From Escherichia coli (GTDB lineage: Bacteria; Pseudomonadota; Gammaproteobacteria; Enterobacterales; Enterobacteriaceae): a stretch of DNA of 64,000 nt. The DNA lies in the NCBI RefSeq assembly GCF_036507355.1, contig NZ_AP027877.1; one strand, given 5' to 3'. Positions within the stretch are counted from its first letter, which is position 1. Each line of letters opens with the position of its first letter. Under the pieces are notes generated by a model that saw nothing but the letters and a program-made list of their open reading frames with translations, searched no databases and was not told the DNA's origin. The position numbers and the translations under genes are program-made. Positions 6,866 to 59,271 of this stretch are shown here, piece by piece.

Positions 6866-7147
6866 GCAGATCTCCTGGCTTGCTTGAATAACTTCATCAT
6901 GGCAGGCGAATCTGCAGAAAACCTCCGGCTTCCAGGTTGAGCATTCCCATAAACTCAGATCCTGCGTGAAGCAGCAGTAAATCTGAGTTTATGGGAATAA
7001 ATTACCTGAAAAGCAGAGTTTTCGGCCTCATGATGCTCGGACAGTCCCCTCGCCTCTCTGGGAAGAGGGTGAAAACCGTGCTCCCACTCGCAGTCATCCT
7101 CCCTCACTCCTGCCATAATTCTGATATTCCAGGAAAGAGAGCCATCC
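6866..7147. promoter_or_regulatory. Divergent melAB / melR promoter region
   Basis: Intergenic region between divergently oriented melA and melR; MelR and CRP sites are expected here from established knowledge but were not mapped base by base. Confidence 0.5.
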
Positions 7148-8056
7148 ATGAATACAGATACGTTTATGTGCAGCAGCGACGAAAAACAGACCCGCAGCCC
7201 GCTGTCGCTGTATTCGGAATACCAGCGGATGGAAATTGAGTTTCGCGCACCGCATATCATGCCCACCAGCCACTGGCATGGTCAGGTCGAAGTGAATGTG
7301 CCTTTCGATGGCGATGTGGAATACCTGATCAATAATGAAAAAGTGAATATCAATCAGGGTCATATCACGCTGTTCTGGGCCTGTACACCGCACCAACTAA
7401 CAGATACCGGAACCTGTCAGAGCATGGCGATTTTTAATCTGCCGATGCATCTGTTTCTCTCCTGGCCGCTGGATAAAGACCTGATTAACCACGTCACTCA
7501 CGGCATGGTGATCAAATCACTGGCTACACAGCAACTTAGCCCGTTTGAAGTGCGCCGCTGGCAGCAGGAATTGAACAGTCCGAATGAGCAAATTCGCCAG
7601 CTCGCCATTGATGAAATTGGCCTGATGCTCAAGCGATTTAGCCTCTCTGGCTGGGAACCGATTCTGGTCAATAAAACCTCGCGCACACACAAAAACAGCG
7701 TCTCGCGCCATGCGCAATTTTATGTTAGCCAGATGCTGGGCTTTATTGCCGAAAACTATGACCAGGCGCTGACCATCAACGATGTGGCTGAGCACGTCAA
7801 ACTTAACGCCAACTATGCAATGGGGATATTCCAACGGGTCATGCAATTGACGATGAAACAGTACATTACCGCGATGCGCATCAACCACGTTCGCGCGTTA
7901 CTGAGCGATACCGATAAAAGTATTCTCGATATTGCCCTGACGGCAGGCTTTCGTTCAAGTAGTCGTTTTTACAGCACGTTCGGCAAATATGTCGGCATGT
8001 CGCCGCAACAATACCGCAAACTTAGCCAACAGCGCCGCCAGACGTTTCCCGGCTAA
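7148..8056 (+). CDS. melR: AraC-family melibiose operon activator MelR
   Basis: 302-aa ORF; C-terminal AraC-type HTH; divergent from melAB. Confidence 0.93.
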   Translation: MNTDTFMCSSDEKQTRSPLSLYSEYQRMEIEFRAPHIMPTSHWHGQVEVNVPFDGDVEYLINNEKVNINQGHITLFWACTPHQLTDTGTCQSMAIFNLPMHLFLSWPLDKDLINHVTHGMVIKSLATQQLSPFEVRRWQQELNSPNEQIRQLAIDEIGLMLKRFSLSGWEPILVNKTSRTHKNSVSRHAQFYVSQMLGFIAENYDQALTINDVAEHVKLNANYAMGIFQRVMQLTMKQYITAMRINHVRALLSDTDKSILDIALTAGFRSSSRFYSTFGKYVGMSPQQYRKLSQQRRQTFPG

Positions 8057-8254
8057 AGACGATATCAGTATCAGCCAAAAAAATAGTTTAGCCGTCGATA
8101 ATAAGCAGTGAAAATAATTTAAAATAATCACATAACATATTGTTTATAAAAACAAATATTTCAAAAATGTTTGTTTTTCACGCGCTTTACAGCCCGAAAA
8201 GGCCGGAAGATACTTGCCCGCAACGAAGATTCCTTCATAACCGGGTAAGCAATG

Positions 8255-10522
8255 ATGAAAGTATTAATTGTTGAAAGCGAGTTTCTCCATCAAGACACCT
8301 GGGTCGGTAACGCCGTTGAGCGTCTGGCAGATGCTTTAAGCCAGCAAAATGTTACCGTGATTAAATCCACCTCCTTTGATGATGGTTTTGCCATTCTCTC
8401 TTCAAACGAAGCCATTGACTGCCTGATGTTCAGCTATCAAATGGAACATCCGGACGAACATCAAAACGTCAGACAATTGATCGGTAAGCTTCATGAGCGC
8501 CAACAAAACGTGCCGGTCTTCCTGTTGGGCGATCGGGAAAAAGCCCTCGCCGCAATGGATCGCGACCTGCTGGAGCTTGTCGATGAATTCGCCTGGATTC
8601 TGGAAGATACCGCCGACTTTATCGCCGGACGCGCCGTTGCCGCGATGACCCGCTACCGCCAGCAGCTGTTGCCGCCACTGTTCAGCGCGCTGATGAAATA
8701 TAGCGACATCCATGAATATTCCTGGGCAGCGCCAGGCCACCAGGGCGGCGTTGGTTTTACCAAAACACCCGCCGGACGTTTCTACCATGACTACTATGGT
8801 GAAAATCTGTTCCGCACCGATATGGGCATCGAACGAACTTCCCTCGGTTCTTTGCTTGACCATACTGGCGCATTTGGCGAAAGCGAAAAATATGCCGCAC
8901 GCGTATTTGGTGCCGATCGCTCCTGGTCGGTAGTCGTCGGTACTTCCGGCTCTAACCGCACCATCATGCAGGCTTGCATGACCGATAACGATGTCGTGGT
9001 CGTTGACCGTAACTGCCATAAATCCATCGAACAAGGCTTGATGCTGACAGGCGCGAAACCAGTCTACATGGTGCCAAGCCGCAACCGCTACGGCATTATC
9101 GGGCCAATCTATCCGCAGGAAATGCAACCTGAAACCTTGCAGAAGAAAATCAGTGAAAGCCCGCTGACTAAAGACAAAGCCGGGCAAAAACCGTCTTACT
9201 GCGTGGTGACCAACTGCACCTATGACGGCGTGTGTTATAACGCTAAAGAAGCGCAGGATCTGCTGGAAAAAACCTCCGATCGTCTGCACTTTGACGAAGC
9301 CTGGTACGGCTATGCACGTTTCAACCCGATCTATGCCGATCACTATGCCATGCGCGGCGAACCTGGCGATCACAACGGTCCTACCGTTTTCGCCACCCAC
9401 TCCACCCACAAACTACTGAATGCGCTGTCACAGGCCTCTTATATTCATGTACGTGAAGGTCGTGGGGCGATTAACTTCTCCCGCTTCAACCAGGCCTACA
9501 TGATGCATGCCACCACCTCCCCGCTGTATGCCATCTGCGCATCCAACGACGTGGCGGTGTCGATGATGGACGGCAACAGTGGCCTGTCACTGACGCAGGA
9601 AGTGATCGACGAAGCGGTTGATTTCCGTCAGGCGATGGCGCGGCTGTATAAAGAGTTCACCGCTGACGGTAGCTGGTTCTTCAAACCGTGGAACAAAGAA
9701 GTCGTCACCGACCCACAAACCGGCAAAACCTATGACTTTGCTGACGCGCCAACCAAACTGTTGACCACCGTTCAGGACTGCTGGGTAATGCATCCGGGCG
9801 AAAGCTGGCACGGCTTCAAAGATATTCCGGATAACTGGAGTATGCACGACCCGATTAAAGTCAGCATCCTTGCTCCGGGAATGGGTGAAGATGGTGAACT
9901 GGAAGAAACCGGTGTTCCGGCGGCGCTGGTCACTGCCTGGCTTGGTCGCCACGGCATTGTGCCTACCCGCACCACTGACTTCCAAATTATGTTCCTGTTC
10001 TCTATGGGCGTAACCCGTGGGAAATGGGGGACTCTGGTTAACACCCTTTGCTCCTTCAAACGCCACTATGACGCCAACACACCGCTGGCGCAGGTGATGC
10101 CGGAACTTGTTGAACAATATCCTGACACTTATGCGAACATGGGGATTCACGATCTGGGTGACACCATGTTTGCCTGGCTGAAAGAAAACAACCCTGGCGC
10201 ACGGTTGAACGAAGCCTATTCCGGCCTGCCGGTGGCGGAAATCACCCCGCGTGAAGCGTACAACGCGATTGTCGACAACAATGTCGAACTGGTATCCATT
10301 GAAAATCTGCCAGGACGTATCGCGGCAAACTCAGTTATCCCGTATCCGCCAGGAATCCCGATGCTGCTGTCTGGTGAAAACTTCGGCGATAAAAACAGTC
10401 CGCAAGTAAGTTATTTACGCTCGCTGCAATCCTGGGACCATCATTTCCCTGGATTTGAACACGAAACTGAAGGGACTGAAATTATTGACGGTATTTACCA
10501 CGTTATGTGTGTGAAAGCGTAA
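8255..10522 (+). CDS. adiA: Biodegradative (acid-inducible) arginine decarboxylase AdiA
   Basis: 755/756-aa ORF beginning MKVLIVESEF; PLP-dependent Orn/Lys/Arg decarboxylase family; followed by adiY and adiC. Confidence 0.95.
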   Translation: MKVLIVESEFLHQDTWVGNAVERLADALSQQNVTVIKSTSFDDGFAILSSNEAIDCLMFSYQMEHPDEHQNVRQLIGKLHERQQNVPVFLLGDREKALAAMDRDLLELVDEFAWILEDTADFIAGRAVAAMTRYRQQLLPPLFSALMKYSDIHEYSWAAPGHQGGVGFTKTPAGRFYHDYYGENLFRTDMGIERTSLGSLLDHTGAFGESEKYAARVFGADRSWSVVVGTSGSNRTIMQACMTDNDVVVVDRNCHKSIEQGLMLTGAKPVYMVPSRNRYGIIGPIYPQEMQPETLQKKISESPLTKDKAGQKPSYCVVTNCTYDGVCYNAKEAQDLLEKTSDRLHFDEAWYGYARFNPIYADHYAMRGEPGDHNGPTVFATHSTHKLLNALSQASYIHVREGRGAINFSRFNQAYMMHATTSPLYAICASNDVAVSMMDGNSGLSLTQEVIDEAVDFRQAMARLYKEFTADGSWFFKPWNKEVVTDPQTGKTYDFADAPTKLLTTVQDCWVMHPGESWHGFKDIPDNWSMHDPIKVSILAPGMGEDGELEETGVPAALVTAWLGRHGIVPTRTTDFQIMFLFSMGVTRGKWGTLVNTLCSFKRHYDANTPLAQVMPELVEQYPDTYANMGIHDLGDTMFAWLKENNPGARLNEAYSGLPVAEITPREAYNAIVDNNVELVSIENLPGRIAANSVIPYPPGIPMLLSGENFGDKNSPQVSYLRSLQSWDHHFPGFEHETEGTEIIDGIYHVMCVKA

Positions 10523-10639
10523 CCACTATTCCGCTGAAGGCGTAATTGTTTAAATAACATTACGCCGCCTGGCCTTAGGCCTTTTGAGTATGGCAACGTT
10601 TTCATAAAAATTGCTGCAAACAAAAATGTCATACTTTTT

Positions 10640-10665
10640 GCGCGGCCCCACCCCGCGCTTTTTTT
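10640..10665 (+). terminator. Rho-independent terminator after adiA
   Basis: GC-rich hairpin gcgcgg-cccacc-ccgcgc followed by T7. Confidence 0.7.
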
Positions 10666-10845
10666 GCCTGTTATTTATCCTGTAAAAAAATATGTACACG
10701 AGAAATTACTATAAAAATTTGTAATATTAGTAAAACTCGTTATTTTTATGCATGTTTATATTCATCATACAATTATATAACCATTTCCCGGTATCGCTTT
10801 GCTTTAGCGAGAACTGGTCTTTTATTCGCACTCAGGAGTACATGT

Positions 10846-11607
10846 ATGAGGATTTGCAGCGACCAACCTTGTATTGTTTTATTGACTGAAAAAGATGTCT
10901 GGATAAGGGTGAATGGGAAAGAACCTATTAGCCTTAAAGCTAACCATATGGCGTTATTAAATTGTGAAAATAATATTATCGACGTCTCCTCTCTTAACAA
11001 CACTTTGGTTGCTCATATTAGTCACGACATCATCAAAGATTACCTCCGGTTTCTGAATAAAGATCTCTCGCAAATACCAGTATGGCAACGTAGCGCTACG
11101 CCCATCCTCACCCTGCCATGCCTGACGCCAGACGTCTTTCGCGTTGCCGCGCAACACAGCATGATGCCCGCAGAAACTGAGTCAGAAAAGGAGCGAACAC
11201 GCGCATTATTATTCACGGTGCTATCCCGTTTTCTCGACAGTAAAAAATTCCTTTCATTAATGATGTATATGTTACGTAATTGTGTAAGTGACAGCGTTTA
11301 TCAAATTATTGAAAGCGATATTCACAAAGACTGGAATCTTAGTATGGTAGCCAGTTGTTTATGTCTTAGCCCAAGTCTGTTAAAGAAAAAGCTGAAAAGC
11401 GAAAACACCAGTTATAGCCAAATAATCACCACCTGCCGCATGCGTTATGCCGTAAATGAATTAATGATGGACGGTAAAAATATCTCCCAGGTATCACAGT
11501 CCTGCGGCTACAACAGTACGTCGTACTTTATTTCTGTCTTTAAAGACTTCTACGGTATGACGCCGCTGCATTATGTTAGTCAGCACAGAGAACGCACTGT
11601 CGCCTGA
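10846..11607 (+). CDS. adiY: AraC-family regulator AdiY
   Basis: 253-aa ORF in AT-rich DNA; C-terminal AraC HTH; between adiA and adiC. Confidence 0.9.
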   Translation: MRICSDQPCIVLLTEKDVWIRVNGKEPISLKANHMALLNCENNIIDVSSLNNTLVAHISHDIIKDYLRFLNKDLSQIPVWQRSATPILTLPCLTPDVFRVAAQHSMMPAETESEKERTRALLFTVLSRFLDSKKFLSLMMYMLRNCVSDSVYQIIESDIHKDWNLSMVASCLCLSPSLLKKKLKSENTSYSQIITTCRMRYAVNELMMDGKNISQVSQSCGYNSTSYFISVFKDFYGMTPLHYVSQHRERTVA

Positions 11608-11743
11608 TTTTTAACCTTAACGAAGAGCTATATTAATAACGGCATCAGCGATAACCCGGTCGATAATAATTCAACTATCGAATGCAGGCGTATGATATGA
11701 CGTAATTTATTGTCACGAAGCTCGCCTTCGCAGGAGTTTAATT

Positions 11744-13081
11744 ATGTCTTCGGATGCTGATGCTCACAAAGTGGGCTTAATCCCCGTCACCCTGATGGTG
11801 TCGGGGAATATTATGGGGTCAGGTGTTTTTCTGTTACCTGCAAACCTGGCCTCCACCGGCGGGATTGCCATTTATGGATGGTTGGTGACGATTATCGGTG
11901 CGCTGGGGCTCTCGATGGTATACGCCAAAATGTCGTTCCTCGACCCAAGTCCTGGTGGTTCTTACGCTTACGCCCGCCGCTGCTTTGGCCCGTTTCTCGG
12001 TTATCAAACCAACGTCCTCTACTGGCTGGCCTGCTGGATCGGCAATATCGCCATGGTGGTCATTGGCGTAGGATATTTAAGTTACTTCTTCCCGATTCTG
12101 AAAGATCCATTGGTATTAACCATCACCTGCGTCGTGGTGCTGTGGATCTTCGTCCTGCTGAACATTGTCGGTCCGAAAATGATCACCCGTGTGCAGGCCG
12201 TTGCCACCGTGCTGGCGCTGATCCCCATCGTCGGGATTGCCGTATTTGGCTGGTTCTGGTTTCGTGGTGAAACCTATATGGCGGCATGGAACGTCAGCGG
12301 CCTGGGCACCTTCGGTGCAATTCAAAGTACCCTTAACGTTACGCTGTGGTCGTTCATCGGTGTGGAAAGTGCCTCCGTTGCCGCAGGTGTGGTGAAAAAC
12401 CCGAAACGCAACGTCCCTATAGCCACCATTGGTGGGGTATTGATTGCCGCCGTTTGCTATGTGCTCTCCACCACCGCGATTATGGGGATGATCCCTAATG
12501 CCGCACTGCGCGTTTCTGCCTCGCCATTCGGTGATGCCGCACGGATGGCGTTGGGTGACACCGCCGGGGCCATCGTTTCCTTCTGCGCAGCTGCGGGTTG
12601 CTTAGGTTCACTGGGCGGCTGGACATTGCTGGCGGGTCAAACGGCGAAAGCGGCTGCCGATGACGGACTGTTCCCACCGATTTTTGCCCGTGTAAATAAA
12701 GCGGGTACGCCAGTGGCGGGGCTGATTATCGTCGGTATTTTGATGACCATCTTCCAGCTCAGCAGCATTTCACCAAACGCGACCAAAGAATTCGGTCTGG
12801 TGTCTTCCGTCTCGGTCATCTTTACACTGGTGCCATATCTTTACACCTGTGCGGCGTTACTGCTGCTCGGACACGGTCACTTTGGTAAAGCACGCCCGGC
12901 ATATCTGGCAGTTACTACCATTGCCTTCCTCTACTGCATCTGGGCCGTGGTGGGGTCCGGGGCGAAAGAGGTTATGTGGTCATTTGTCACCCTGATGGTC
13001 ATCACCGCCATGTATGCGCTGAATTACAACCGGCTGCATAAAAACCCGTATCCCTTAGATGCACCAATAAGCAAAGATTAA
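11744..13081 (+). CDS. adiC: Arginine:agmatine antiporter AdiC
   Basis: 445-aa APC-family permease; recognised AdiC sequence. Confidence 0.95.
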
Positions 13082-13105
13082 TTCCCCTTAATCCAGCAAA
13101 GATAA

Positions 13106-13143
13106 AAGCCAACCTTAAGAACTTAAGGTTGGCTTAATTTTGC
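13106..13143 (+). terminator. Rho-independent terminator after adiC
   Basis: Hairpin aagccaaccttaag-aa-cttaaggttggctt followed by T-rich tract. Confidence 0.65.
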
Positions 13144-13184
13144 TTTGCGAGCATATGCGCACTTTGTTCGATGGAAACACCGTG

Positions 13185-14828
13185 ATGTTGAAGCGCCTAC
13201 TAAAAAGACCCTCTTTGAATTTACTCGCCTGGCTATTGTTGGCCGCTTTTTATATCTCTATCTGCCTGAATATTGCCTTTTTTAAACAGGTGTTGCAGGC
13301 GCTGCCGCTGGACTCGCTGCATAACGTACTGGTTTTCTTGTCGATGCCGGTCGTCGCCTTCAGCGTGATTAATATTGTCCTGACACTAAGCTCTTTCTTA
13401 TGGCTTAATCGACCGCTGGCCTGCCTGTTTATTCTGGTTGGCGCGGCTGCACAATATTTCATAATGACTTACGGCATCGTCATCGACCGCTCGATGATTG
13501 CCAATATTATTGATACCACTCCGGCAGAAAGTTATGCGCTGATGACACCGCAAATGTTATTAACGCTGGGATTCAGCGGCGTGCTTGCTGCGCTGATTGC
13601 CTGCTGGATAAAAATCAAACCTGCCACCTCGCGTCTGCGCAGTGTTCTTTTCCGTGGAGCCAATATTCTGGTTTCTGTACTGCTGATTTTGCTGGTCGCC
13701 GCACTATTTTATAAAGACTACGCCTCGTTGTTCCGCAACAACAAAGAGCTGGTGAAGTCCTTAAGCCCCTCTAACAGCATTGTTGCCAGCTGGTCATGGT
13801 ACTCCCATCAGCGACTGGCAAATCTGCCGCTGGTGCGAATTGGTGAAGACGCGCACCGCAACCCGTTAATGCAGAACGAAAAACGTAAAAATTTGACCAT
13901 CCTGATTGTCGGCGAAACCTCGCGGGCGGAGAACTTCTCCCTCAACGGCTACCCGCGTGAAACTAACCCGCGGCTGGCGAAAGATAACGTGGTCTATTTC
14001 CCTAATACCGCATCTTGCGGCACGGCAACGGCAGTTTCAGTACCGTGCATGTTCTCGGATATGCCGCGAGAACACTACAAAGAAGAGCTGGCACAGCACC
14101 AGGAAGGCGTGCTGGATATCATTCAGCGAGCGGGCATCAACGTGCTGTGGAATGACAACGATGGTGGCTGTAAAGGTGCCTGCGACCGCGTGCCTCACCA
14201 GAACGTCACCGCGCTGAATCTGCCTGGTCAGTGCATCAACGGCGAATGCTATGACGAAGTGCTGTTCCACGGGCTGGAAGAGTACATCAATAACCTGCAG
14301 GGTGATGGCGTGATTGTCTTACACACCATCGGCAGCCACGGTCCGACCTATTACAACCGCTATCCGCCGCAGTTCAGGAAATTTACCCCAACCTGCGACA
14401 CCAATGAGATCCAGACCTGTACCAAAGAGCAACTGGTGAACACTTACGACAACACGCTGGTCTACGTCGACTATATTGTTGATAAAGCGATTAATCTGCT
14501 GAAAGAACATCAGGATAAATTTACCACCAGCCTGGTTTATCTTTCTGACCACGGTGAATCGTTAGGCGAAAATGGCATCTATCTGCACGGTCTGCCTTAT
14601 GCCATCGCCCCGGATAGCCAAAAACAGGTGCCAATGCTGCTGTGGCTGTCGGAGAATTATCAAAAACGGTATCAGGTTGACCAGAACTGCCTGCAAAAAC
14701 AGGCGCAAACACAACACTATTCACAAGACAATTTATTCTCCACGCTATTGGGATTAACTGGCGTTGAGACGAAGTATTACCAGGCTGCGGATGATATTCT
14801 GCAAACTTGCAGGAGAGTGAGTGAATGA
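13185..14828 (+). CDS. eptA: Lipid A phosphoethanolamine transferase EptA (PmrC)
   Basis: ORF 13140..14828; start placed at [14 protein letters not shown], giving 547 aa; sulfatase-like domain; stop overlaps basR start. Confidence 0.93.
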
Positions 14829-57133: not shown

Positions 57134-59094
<1,961 letters not shown>

Positions 59095-59271
59095 TCTCTC
59101 CCCTTCCCCGGTCGTCTGACCGGGGAATACTCTTCCTCTCCCAAATGCATCACCTTTTCCCATAATATTAAACAAATAAACTCATTAAAAAATGAGCGAT
59201 TTTTGACAGTCGTAGAAAATGATAATGCAGAGAATATGCCTTTTCTTTCTTGTTAATTATAAGGATATTTT

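Follow-up and report, generated by a model that had tools for sequence, protein, structure and literature searches.

The stretch of Escherichia coli DNA described here, positions 8057-13143 (5087 bp) of a 64-kb chromosomal segment referred to below as the window, is the canonical E. coli arginine-dependent acid-resistance locus adiA-adiY-adiC (AR3/Adi). Within this locus, the regulator gene adiY and the noncoding DNA on both of its sides form a contiguous module rich in adenine and thymine (AT-rich). Probably, this module was inserted in ancient times between adiA and adiC, and its AT-richness would have been maintained since. The genes and the module are located as follows:

10523-11743, plus strand: AT-rich module made up of the adiA 3' untranslated region (3'UTR), the adiY promoter region PadiY, adiY and the adiC promoter region PadiC; 1221 contiguous bp with a guanine-plus-cytosine (GC) content of 0.400
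10846-11607, plus strand: adiY, AraC/XylS-family activator and cytoplasmic pH sensor, 253 aa (Pfam HTH_AraC/HTH_18)
8252-10522, plus strand: adiA, biodegradative arginine decarboxylase (NCBIfam equivalog NF011603)
11744-13081, plus strand: adiC, arginine:agmatine antiporter (NCBIfam equivalog NF007929)
7148-8056, plus strand: melR, open reading frame (ORF)
from 13185, plus strand: eptA, ORF

Matches to the 5087-bp query were found in 5417 of the 5426 complete E. coli genomes, the best being 99.5% identical; in 5400 genomes at least 80% of the query was covered. AdiA scored 1704 bits against NF011603 (cutoff 1167; residues 1-756, full length) and AdiC 892 bits against NF007929 (cutoff 574; residues 1-445); MelR and EptA were likewise above curated NCBIfam equivalog cutoffs. 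No AdiY equivalog in NCBIfam matched AdiY, for which the top match was GadX, under its cutoff; the residues His34 and His60 are both present. The MelR, AdiA, AdiY, AdiC and EptA proteins are each 100% identical in amino acid sequence to those of strain K-12, and the order of the ORFs on the plus strand (melR, adiA, adiY, adiC, eptA) is that of the K-12 annotation, melR-adiA-adiY-adiC-eptA-basR-basS, in which the adiA start is the second ATG, at 8255. The initial annotation, made from the sequence alone, had called the acid-resistance system complete; this was confirmed, as all three genes were identified, their coordinates hold and their products are identical to the K-12 proteins.

Base composition of the locus

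The GC content of adiY was 0.419, compared with 0.526 for adiA, 0.544 for adiC and 0.531 for the whole window (adiY versus adiA plus adiC: chi-square 32, p = 1.3e-8; third codon positions alone, p = 6e-5). Intergenic values were 0.344 for melR-adiA (8057-8251), 0.362 for adiA-adiY (10523-10845) and 0.382 for adiY-adiC (11608-11743). The initial annotation had stated that adiY and the flanking intergenic regions are more AT-rich than adiA and adiC, which these values bear out; the sliding-window check proposed with that statement was run, and the uniform GC content named beforehand as its refutation was not seen across the locus.

Taken as a whole, the module 10523-11743 differed from adiA plus adiC with a chi-square p of 1e-15 and fell in the lowest 1.8% of sliding windows of the same length over the 64 kb. 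The 200-bp windows 10600-10799 and 10700-10899 had GC contents of 0.305 and 0.320. In the module the AT content stays well above that of the surroundings over several hundred bp, as in H-NS-silenced DNA.

A local baseline was built from the 61 coding sequences and 30 intergenic regions of the neighbourhood, taken from the annotation of the closest genome. adiY had the second lowest GC content among the 61 coding sequences (mean 0.544, sd 0.05) and was the most AT-rich of those longer than 300 bp. The three intergenic regions of the locus ranked 3rd, 5th and 8th, lowest first, among the 30 of the neighbourhood. Because 10 of these 30 had a GC content below 0.40, the true anomaly is the body of the adiY gene, and the intergenic regions of the locus are promoter regions with the usual AT-richness. 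By itself, an AT-rich intergenic region is not diagnostic; the GC dip over a regulator gene lying between genes of normal GC content correctly flagged a known H-NS target.

Elsewhere in the window, the most AT-rich stretch was 58945-60808 (1864 bp, GC 0.373, with a minimum of 0.28 in 500 bp), a compositional outlier stronger than adiY. It includes an ORF of 430 aa with pentapeptide repeats (59272-60564), which we take to be probably yjcF.

The low GC content of the locus could be without special meaning, being the sum of ordinary promoter regions and of a weakly expressed gene from an AraC subfamily rich in I, N, K, F, Y and M, with no need for selection by H-NS or for a foreign origin. We regard this explanation as unlikely, although several observations agree with it. 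Besides the ranks of the intergenic regions, the adiY promoter was found to be weak under all conditions tested (Gallo 2025, PMC12826058), and the residues FYMINK and GARP make up 30% and 14.6% of AdiY, compared with 25% and 25% of AdiA. The GC contents of adiY at codon positions 1, 2 and 3 (GC1, GC2 and GC3) were 0.421, 0.366 and 0.469, and about 60% of its deficit lay at positions 1 and 2. That part is common to the paralog EnvY, whose gene has the same GC1 and GC2 (0.429 and 0.370), and since EnvY shares it, it reflects the amino-acid composition of the AraC subfamily and not selection at the DNA level, a point that counts against maintenance of the bias as such.

The same explanation does not cover the third codon position. 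GC3 was 0.469 in adiY versus 0.591 in envY, 0.596 in adiA, 0.611 in melR and 0.628 in adiC, so that the synonymous deficit is specific to this locus. A scan for AdiA in one genome per species yielded 80 loci, in which AdiA, AdiY and AdiC were located. An adiY or adiY-like gene was found between adiA and adiC in 30 of them, belonging to Escherichia, Citrobacter, Salmonella, Yokenella, Kluyvera, Kosakonia, Enterobacter, Hafnia and two further Enterobacteriaceae. The deficit recurred in all 30: the GC content of adiY was 0.093-0.140 below the adiA/adiC mean (mean difference -0.119), GC3 was lower too, and the interval equivalent to 10523-11743 was AT-shifted. Nor does an absence of special meaning sit well with the H-NS binding and derepression documented by experiment (Krin 2010, PMC2984483).

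The GC3 deficit is specific to adiY. Because it recurs in all genera while synonymous sites are saturated between genera, the composition would seem to have been maintained without conservation of the sequence. Such a maintained AT bias could stem either from selection for H-NS occupancy or from a mutational bias acting locally, the two being inseparable here.

Distribution of adiY and age of the module

Escherichia, Citrobacter, Salmonella, Kluyvera, Yokenella, Kosakonia and Hafnia have adiY in a syntenic position and with an equal AT shift. In 17 Xenorhabdus loci (L030-L046, L050 range; for example, L030 8001-11650), adiA and adiC form a bicistron that resembles the E. coli pair in order and strand, with AdiA 72-74% and AdiC 80-84% identical, but lacks adiY, internal promoters and an adiA terminator. 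Its spacer of about 20 bp contained only a GGGAAG-type ribosome-binding site, with no remnant of adiY or of a promoter, and no AdiY-like gene was found in the flanks of the 17 loci, for which up to 8 kb were covered on each side. In a Variovorax locus and in one from a deltaproteobacterial metagenome-assembled genome, too, an antiporter gene comes directly after adiA.

The gap between adiA and adiC varied in content as well. It was 1.5-2.3 kb larger in Kluyvera, Yokenella, Kosakonia and Enterobacter sp. Bisph1, where it holds, between adiA and adiY, gadE-like, hdeD and hdeA genes (L021 10386-15159 in Kluyvera; also L019, L047, L075 and L023). The GadE homolog is 46% identical to K-12 GadE over its full length and carries the Pfam domain GerE; HdeA and HdeD were above their NCBIfam cutoffs, HdeD being missing in Kosakonia. 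The GC content of these gap genes was 0.39-0.44. An HdeB-like ORF also follows adiC in Kluyvera, and the embedded acid genes overall had a GC content of 0.39-0.46. The Kluyvera-type arrangement amounts to a small acid-fitness island lying inside the adi locus; a literature search found no paper describing gadE-hdeD-hdeA at this position. The chromosomal flanks of adi varied by genus, melR and eptA being found there only in Escherichia, Citrobacter and Salmonella.

These comparisons argue for an old insertion of the AT-rich regulator module into a decarboxylase-antiporter pair, which would have been inherited vertically afterwards. The opposite course, in which adiY is ancestral and was lost from Xenorhabdus by precise deletion, would require neither an insertion nor a mosaic. 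Several findings favour it and weigh against an insertion. Xenorhabdus was the only sampled lineage with an orthologous AdiC (above 80%) and no adiY; the antiporters of the other outgroups are not orthologous, being only 29-36% identical to AdiC, and are often encoded upstream of adiA. Hafnia, which lies outside the Enterobacteriaceae, has an adiY-like AraC gene at the same position (L025 10600-11361; L026 2712-3470; 253 aa, 49-51% identical, GC 0.37-0.38), pointing to a possible older insertion or transfer of the whole locus; Brameyer et al. 2022 had scored Hafnia as having no AdiY at E < 1e-100. The presumed polarity, insertion versus loss in Xenorhabdus, depends on few outgroups.

Nevertheless, an ancestral adiY seems to us improbable. 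The Xenorhabdus junction is clean, the Variovorax and deltaproteobacterial loci have the same direct succession of genes, and the presence or absence of gadE-hdeD-hdeA across genera of the Enterobacteriaceae indicates that the interval both gains and loses genes. In addition, AdiC was recorded by Brameyer et al. 2022 for Yersiniaceae, Morganellaceae and Lysobacteraceae, AdiY being limited to Enterobacteriaceae.

A recent acquisition or replacement of adiY, or of the whole AT-rich module, by recombination in E. coli is effectively refuted, even though a GC content below that of the flanks is what recent transfer classically leaves behind. Of the 5426 complete E. coli genomes, 5400 have the locus, and in Salmonella and Citrobacter it is syntenic, lying between melR and eptA there too. 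No insertion sequence, integrase, tRNA, RNA gene or repeat feature is annotated from melR to eptA in K-12. The DNA identity of adiY was 99.3% to K-12 and 90-91% to the cryptic Escherichia lineages, matching that of adiA and melR, and identity computed segment by segment within Escherichia, as a test for recent mosaicism, revealed no anomaly at adiY. The ratio of nonsynonymous to synonymous substitutions (dN/dS) of adiY was 0.025-0.036, like that of its neighbours, and the synonymous divergence (dS) of 0.53-0.63 was not reduced.

A search for AdiY on plasmids was discarded as evidence of mobility: the high-identity matches were mostly records of 0.3-4.9 Mb, nearly all predicted to be non-mobilizable, and look like chromosomal DNA filed as plasmids.

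With regard to horizontal acquisition, then, the locus has no annotated mobility genes, is near-universal in E. coli and is syntenic in at least 8 genera, yet adiY is missing from the Xenorhabdus adiAC pair and the gap is variable. The mosaic origin proposed for the regulator in the initial annotation is accordingly supported only as an ancient event, on account of Xenorhabdus and the variable gap; as a recent one it conflicts with the synteny and with a divergence that tracks that of the neighbouring genes. The term xenogeneic, taken to mean recently foreign DNA, found no support.

The adiC gene showed a divergence of its own. Compared with the cryptic Escherichia loci L003 and L004, its DNA identity was 86.7-87.7% (dS 0.69-0.77), and that of adiA, melR and eptA was 91.7-93.7% (dS 0.29-0.45); compared with L048, adiC was not more diverged. 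This suggests, if weakly, an old recombination involving adiC and not adiY.

A bolder interpretation, which we offer tentatively and hold to be doubtful, is that the adiA-adiC gap is a long-lived slot for a portable "acid-regulator cassette", its AT bias having been maintained since before the split of Escherichia and Salmonella. The reasons for proposing it are that gadE-hdeD-hdeA and an AdiY/EnvY-like gene share the gap in Kluyvera, Yokenella, Kosakonia and one Enterobacter, and that the synonymous AT bias is maintained in all lineages while the sequence turns over. Were this so, the adiY body could serve as a platform for an H-NS filament co-silencing PadiY and PadiC, with AdiY as the counter-silencer, and the origin of the regulators of the E. 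coli acid fitness island would be linked to the adi locus.

Promoters, H-NS control and transcript ends

The regulatory and transcript elements of the locus are listed below.

8057-8251, plus strand: melR-adiA intergenic region, adiA promoter/operator PadiA (published primers and promoter scan)
10667-10845, plus strand: PadiY, promoter region of adiY and most AT-rich stretch of the locus (within the published fragment 10539-10845)
11608-11743, plus strand: adiY-adiC intergenic region, adiC promoter/operator PadiC (within the published fragment 11549-11743)
10523-10666, plus strand: adiA 3'UTR, with a hairpin (10539-10567), an AdiZ-homologous stem, a U-rich stretch and a terminator
10587-10595 and 10627-10635, plus strand: arms of the AdiZ-homologous stem (alignment)
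10640-10658, plus strand: adiA intrinsic terminator GCGCGG-loop-CCGCGC, then T7 at 10659-10665 (terminator scan)
13106-13135 (element 13106-13143), both strands: adiC intrinsic terminator with a perfect 13-bp stem (terminator scan)

That H-NS controls adiY comes from published experiments, not from reasoning on base composition. In an hns mutant, adiY mRNA was increased 5-fold, and purified H-NS preferentially bound the adiY promoter fragment in a competitive gel shift (Krin et al. 2010, PMC2984483). The same mutant showed a 17-fold increase for adiA and a 12-fold increase for adiC, with values of 0.7 and 1.4 in the hns adiY double mutant (Krin 2010, PMC2984483). Because the derepression is lost when adiY is also inactivated, the documented effect of H-NS on adiA and adiC is indirect, through adiY, and the direct target is PadiY. 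The control by H-NS that the initial annotation had suggested for the AT-rich segments therefore stands for the adiY promoter, where binding and derepression have been reported (Krin 2010, PMC2984483); for the melR-adiA region (8057-8254), which is the AdiY-dependent adiA promoter, it stays a suggestion.

Some results weigh against the part given here to H-NS. Early studies by chromatin immunoprecipitation on microarrays (ChIP-chip) did not include adiY among the H-NS targets (Krin 2010, PMC2984483), and our literature search found no report of H-NS occupancy at adi by ChIP. A scan of the window for the high-affinity H-NS consensus TCGATAAATT, allowing up to 2 mismatches, was uninformative: the 68 matches, against 55 +/- 7.6 expected, were reached in 6 of 100 shuffles, so the consensus was not enriched, and they did not cluster in the AT-rich segments.

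The primers used by Gallo et al. 2025 (PMC12826058) to amplify PadiA (PadiA_SPR-F/R) mapped, by eye, exactly to the 195-bp region 8057-8251, and those for PadiY and PadiC located these promoters at 10539-10845 and 11549-11743. As a tetramer at pH 5.8-6.0, AdiY binds PadiA with a dissociation constant (KD) of about 170 nM and PadiC with a KD of about 120 nM; no binding to PadiY was found (Gallo 2025, PMC12826058).

In PadiA, a promoter scan revealed a sigma-70-like promoter, TTTACA (8186-8191)-17-GATACT (8209-8214). Alignment of 9 Escherichia, Citrobacter and Salmonella sequences showed that TTTAC of the -35 element and ATACT of the -10 element are invariant, as are the upstream blocks ATATCA-TATCAGC and GTCGATAA. 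In PadiC, five of the six positions of the hexamer TATGAT (11691-11696), TAT-AT, were invariant in 15 sequences from at least 7 genera, and an upstream block, (T)ATATCAGCA..GCGATA, was largely conserved. The conserved blocks of PadiY, also identified by alignment, were TTATTTT-A-G and ATTC-TCA-AC.

No binding motif for AdiY is defined in the literature on this protein that we examined. Within the window, the 11-mer GTCGATAATAA is confined to PadiA (8094-8104) and PadiC (11659-11669); it was rejected as an AdiY box since the PadiC copy is specific to E. coli and not conserved in other Escherichia, whereas the PadiA blocks are invariant across three genera. A block shared by the two promoters, ATATCAGyATyAGCs (PadiA 8062-8076; PadiC 11636-11650, with 2 mismatches), was kept as a lead only, the pattern having been derived from these very sequences and being matched equally well at two unrelated positions of the window. 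The ATCAG-type blocks and GTCGATAATAA are thus possible, statistically weak candidates for AdiY operator elements. Just upstream of the adiA -35 element lies a 14-nt inverted repeat, AAAAACAAATATTT / AAATGTTTGTTTTT (8148-8178, 93% complementary, 3-nt spacer), which is not conserved in the other Escherichia lineages aligned.

The first 145 nt or so after adiA are not a regulatory spacer: alignment identifies them as a 3'UTR with a putative homolog of AdiZ, showing that a so-called regulatory spacer can in part be a 3'UTR encoding a small RNA (sRNA). In Salmonella, the adiA 3'UTR is cut by RNase E to give the Hfq-dependent sRNA AdiZ (Kanda 2025, PMC12746102). In the window, the block TGTCATAC-TTTTTGCGCGG...CCCGCGCTTTTTT was invariant in the 9 aligned sequences and corresponds to what Kanda et al. 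2025 (PMC12746102) describe as the "Hfq-binding module" of AdiZ/STnc1180. The candidate is situated in the adiA 3'UTR, has the adiA terminator as its end and combines a conserved U-rich stretch with that terminator; its 5' end is estimated at about 10580. The region 10523-10668 was significantly structured (fold z = -2.8). For Escherichia-Shigella, an adiZ cluster has been described whose module, a U-rich stretch with the terminator, is almost perfectly conserved (Kanda 2025, PMC12746102). A search with Rfam 15, which does not include AdiZ, matched no family to the adiA 3'UTR. The only Rfam match at E <= 1 in 7000-14000 was a sub-threshold Qrr match on the adiC terminator, taken as chance.

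The architecture adiA-adiZ-adiY-adiC of Salmonella is like that of the present locus, and the adiA terminator with the preceding U-rich/Hfq module is invariant. The E. coli 3'UTR differs in being longer (144 nt), with an extra 5' hairpin (10539-10567; arms GGCGTAAT...ATTACGCC) that is missing in Salmonella and the Citrobacter freundii group; at its position, another hairpin-forming sequence (GCGTCA...TGACGC) is found in C. amalonaticus and C. sedlakii. At the RNase E site, which has 8 U in Salmonella, E. coli has only 4. The AdiZ seed region is variable in the alignment, and the SgrS-like seed acting on ptsG is not conserved in Escherichia (Kanda 2025, PMC12746102); processing by RNase E, dependence on Hfq and repression of ptsG, pykF and dmsA have been shown for AdiZ only in Salmonella (Kanda 2025, PMC12746102). 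Because of the extra hairpin, the shorter U tract and the unconserved ptsG seed, a function of AdiZ in E. coli should be considered with caution, as unproven.

According to the initial annotation, each gene is followed by its own hairpin terminator. This was correct for adiA and for adiC, whose terminator has T-rich tails on both strands and a fold of -25.9 kcal/mol (z = -6.1), but not for adiY: the terminator scan of 11608-11743 gave no site, and the 146-nt adiY-adiC interval folded no better than shuffled sequences (z = +0.64). Just upstream of the adiC ribosome-binding site there is a small hairpin, CGAAG...CTTCG; it lacks a T tail and is missing in Citrobacter. Since there is no terminator between the two genes, transcription probably continues from adiY into adiC.

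Relation to known acid-resistance systems

For E. coli nothing here is new, as the genes, the promoters, the mechanism of the regulator, the H-NS control and the 3'UTR sRNA have all been published. What may be of incremental interest for the evolution of acid resistance in enterobacteria are the Xenorhabdus adiAC bicistron, the Kluyvera-like gadE-hdeD-hdeA arrangement and the synonymous AT bias.

The closest reference is the K-12 adiA-adiY-adiC locus (b4117-b4115), which is alike in order, orientation, spacing and the melR and eptA flanks, with a DNA identity of about 99% in every segment; the two differ only by a few dozen substitutions and, in the adiA-adiY spacer, by a 1-nt indel, and are one and the same locus in function. 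Induction by acid and anaerobiosis and protection at pH 2.5 with arginine are known for K-12 from the literature, and the same inducibility and protection are assumed for the present strain. As established for K-12, whose proteins are identical, AdiA would decarboxylate arginine and so consume a proton, and AdiC would exchange agmatine out for arginine in. AdiY would sense cytoplasmic acidification through His34 and His60 and then act as a tetramer at the promoters of adiA and adiC; H-NS on the adiY promoter would hold adiY about 5-fold down, keeping adiA and adiC off at neutral pH.

On the evolutionary side, the regulator module would have entered the ancestral adiA-adiC pair early in the Enterobacteriaceae/Hafnia lineage, and its AT-richness would have been maintained and not ameliorated since then, selection for H-NS occupancy being a plausible cause. 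The module may belong to an AT-rich group of acid regulators that includes AdiY, EnvY and GadX.

EnvY (K-12 b0566), which surfaced in the AdiY plasmid search, is the closest E. coli paralog of AdiY. The two proteins are 57% identical over 252 aa and equal in length, and the genes (envY, L085 8148-8909, compared with window positions 10846-11607) agree in GC1 and GC2. The envY gene differs in having a normal GC3 and in its location outside an acid-resistance locus, adjoining ompT just past the annotated end of the cryptic prophage DLP12. The Kluyvera-type AdiY stands equally far from both, with 62% identity to AdiY and 63% to EnvY. The GC content of appY was 0.317.

The acid fitness island offers a similar picture, with genes of normal GC content (gadA 0.540, mdtEF 0.53-0.55) beside AT-rich, H-NS-bound regulators (gadX 0.410, gadW 0.418, gadE 0.330), and AdiY is 33-38% identical to GadX and GadW. 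The island differs in serving another decarboxylase system and in being found mostly in Escherichia/Shigella, whereas adiY occurs in many genera of the Enterobacteriaceae.

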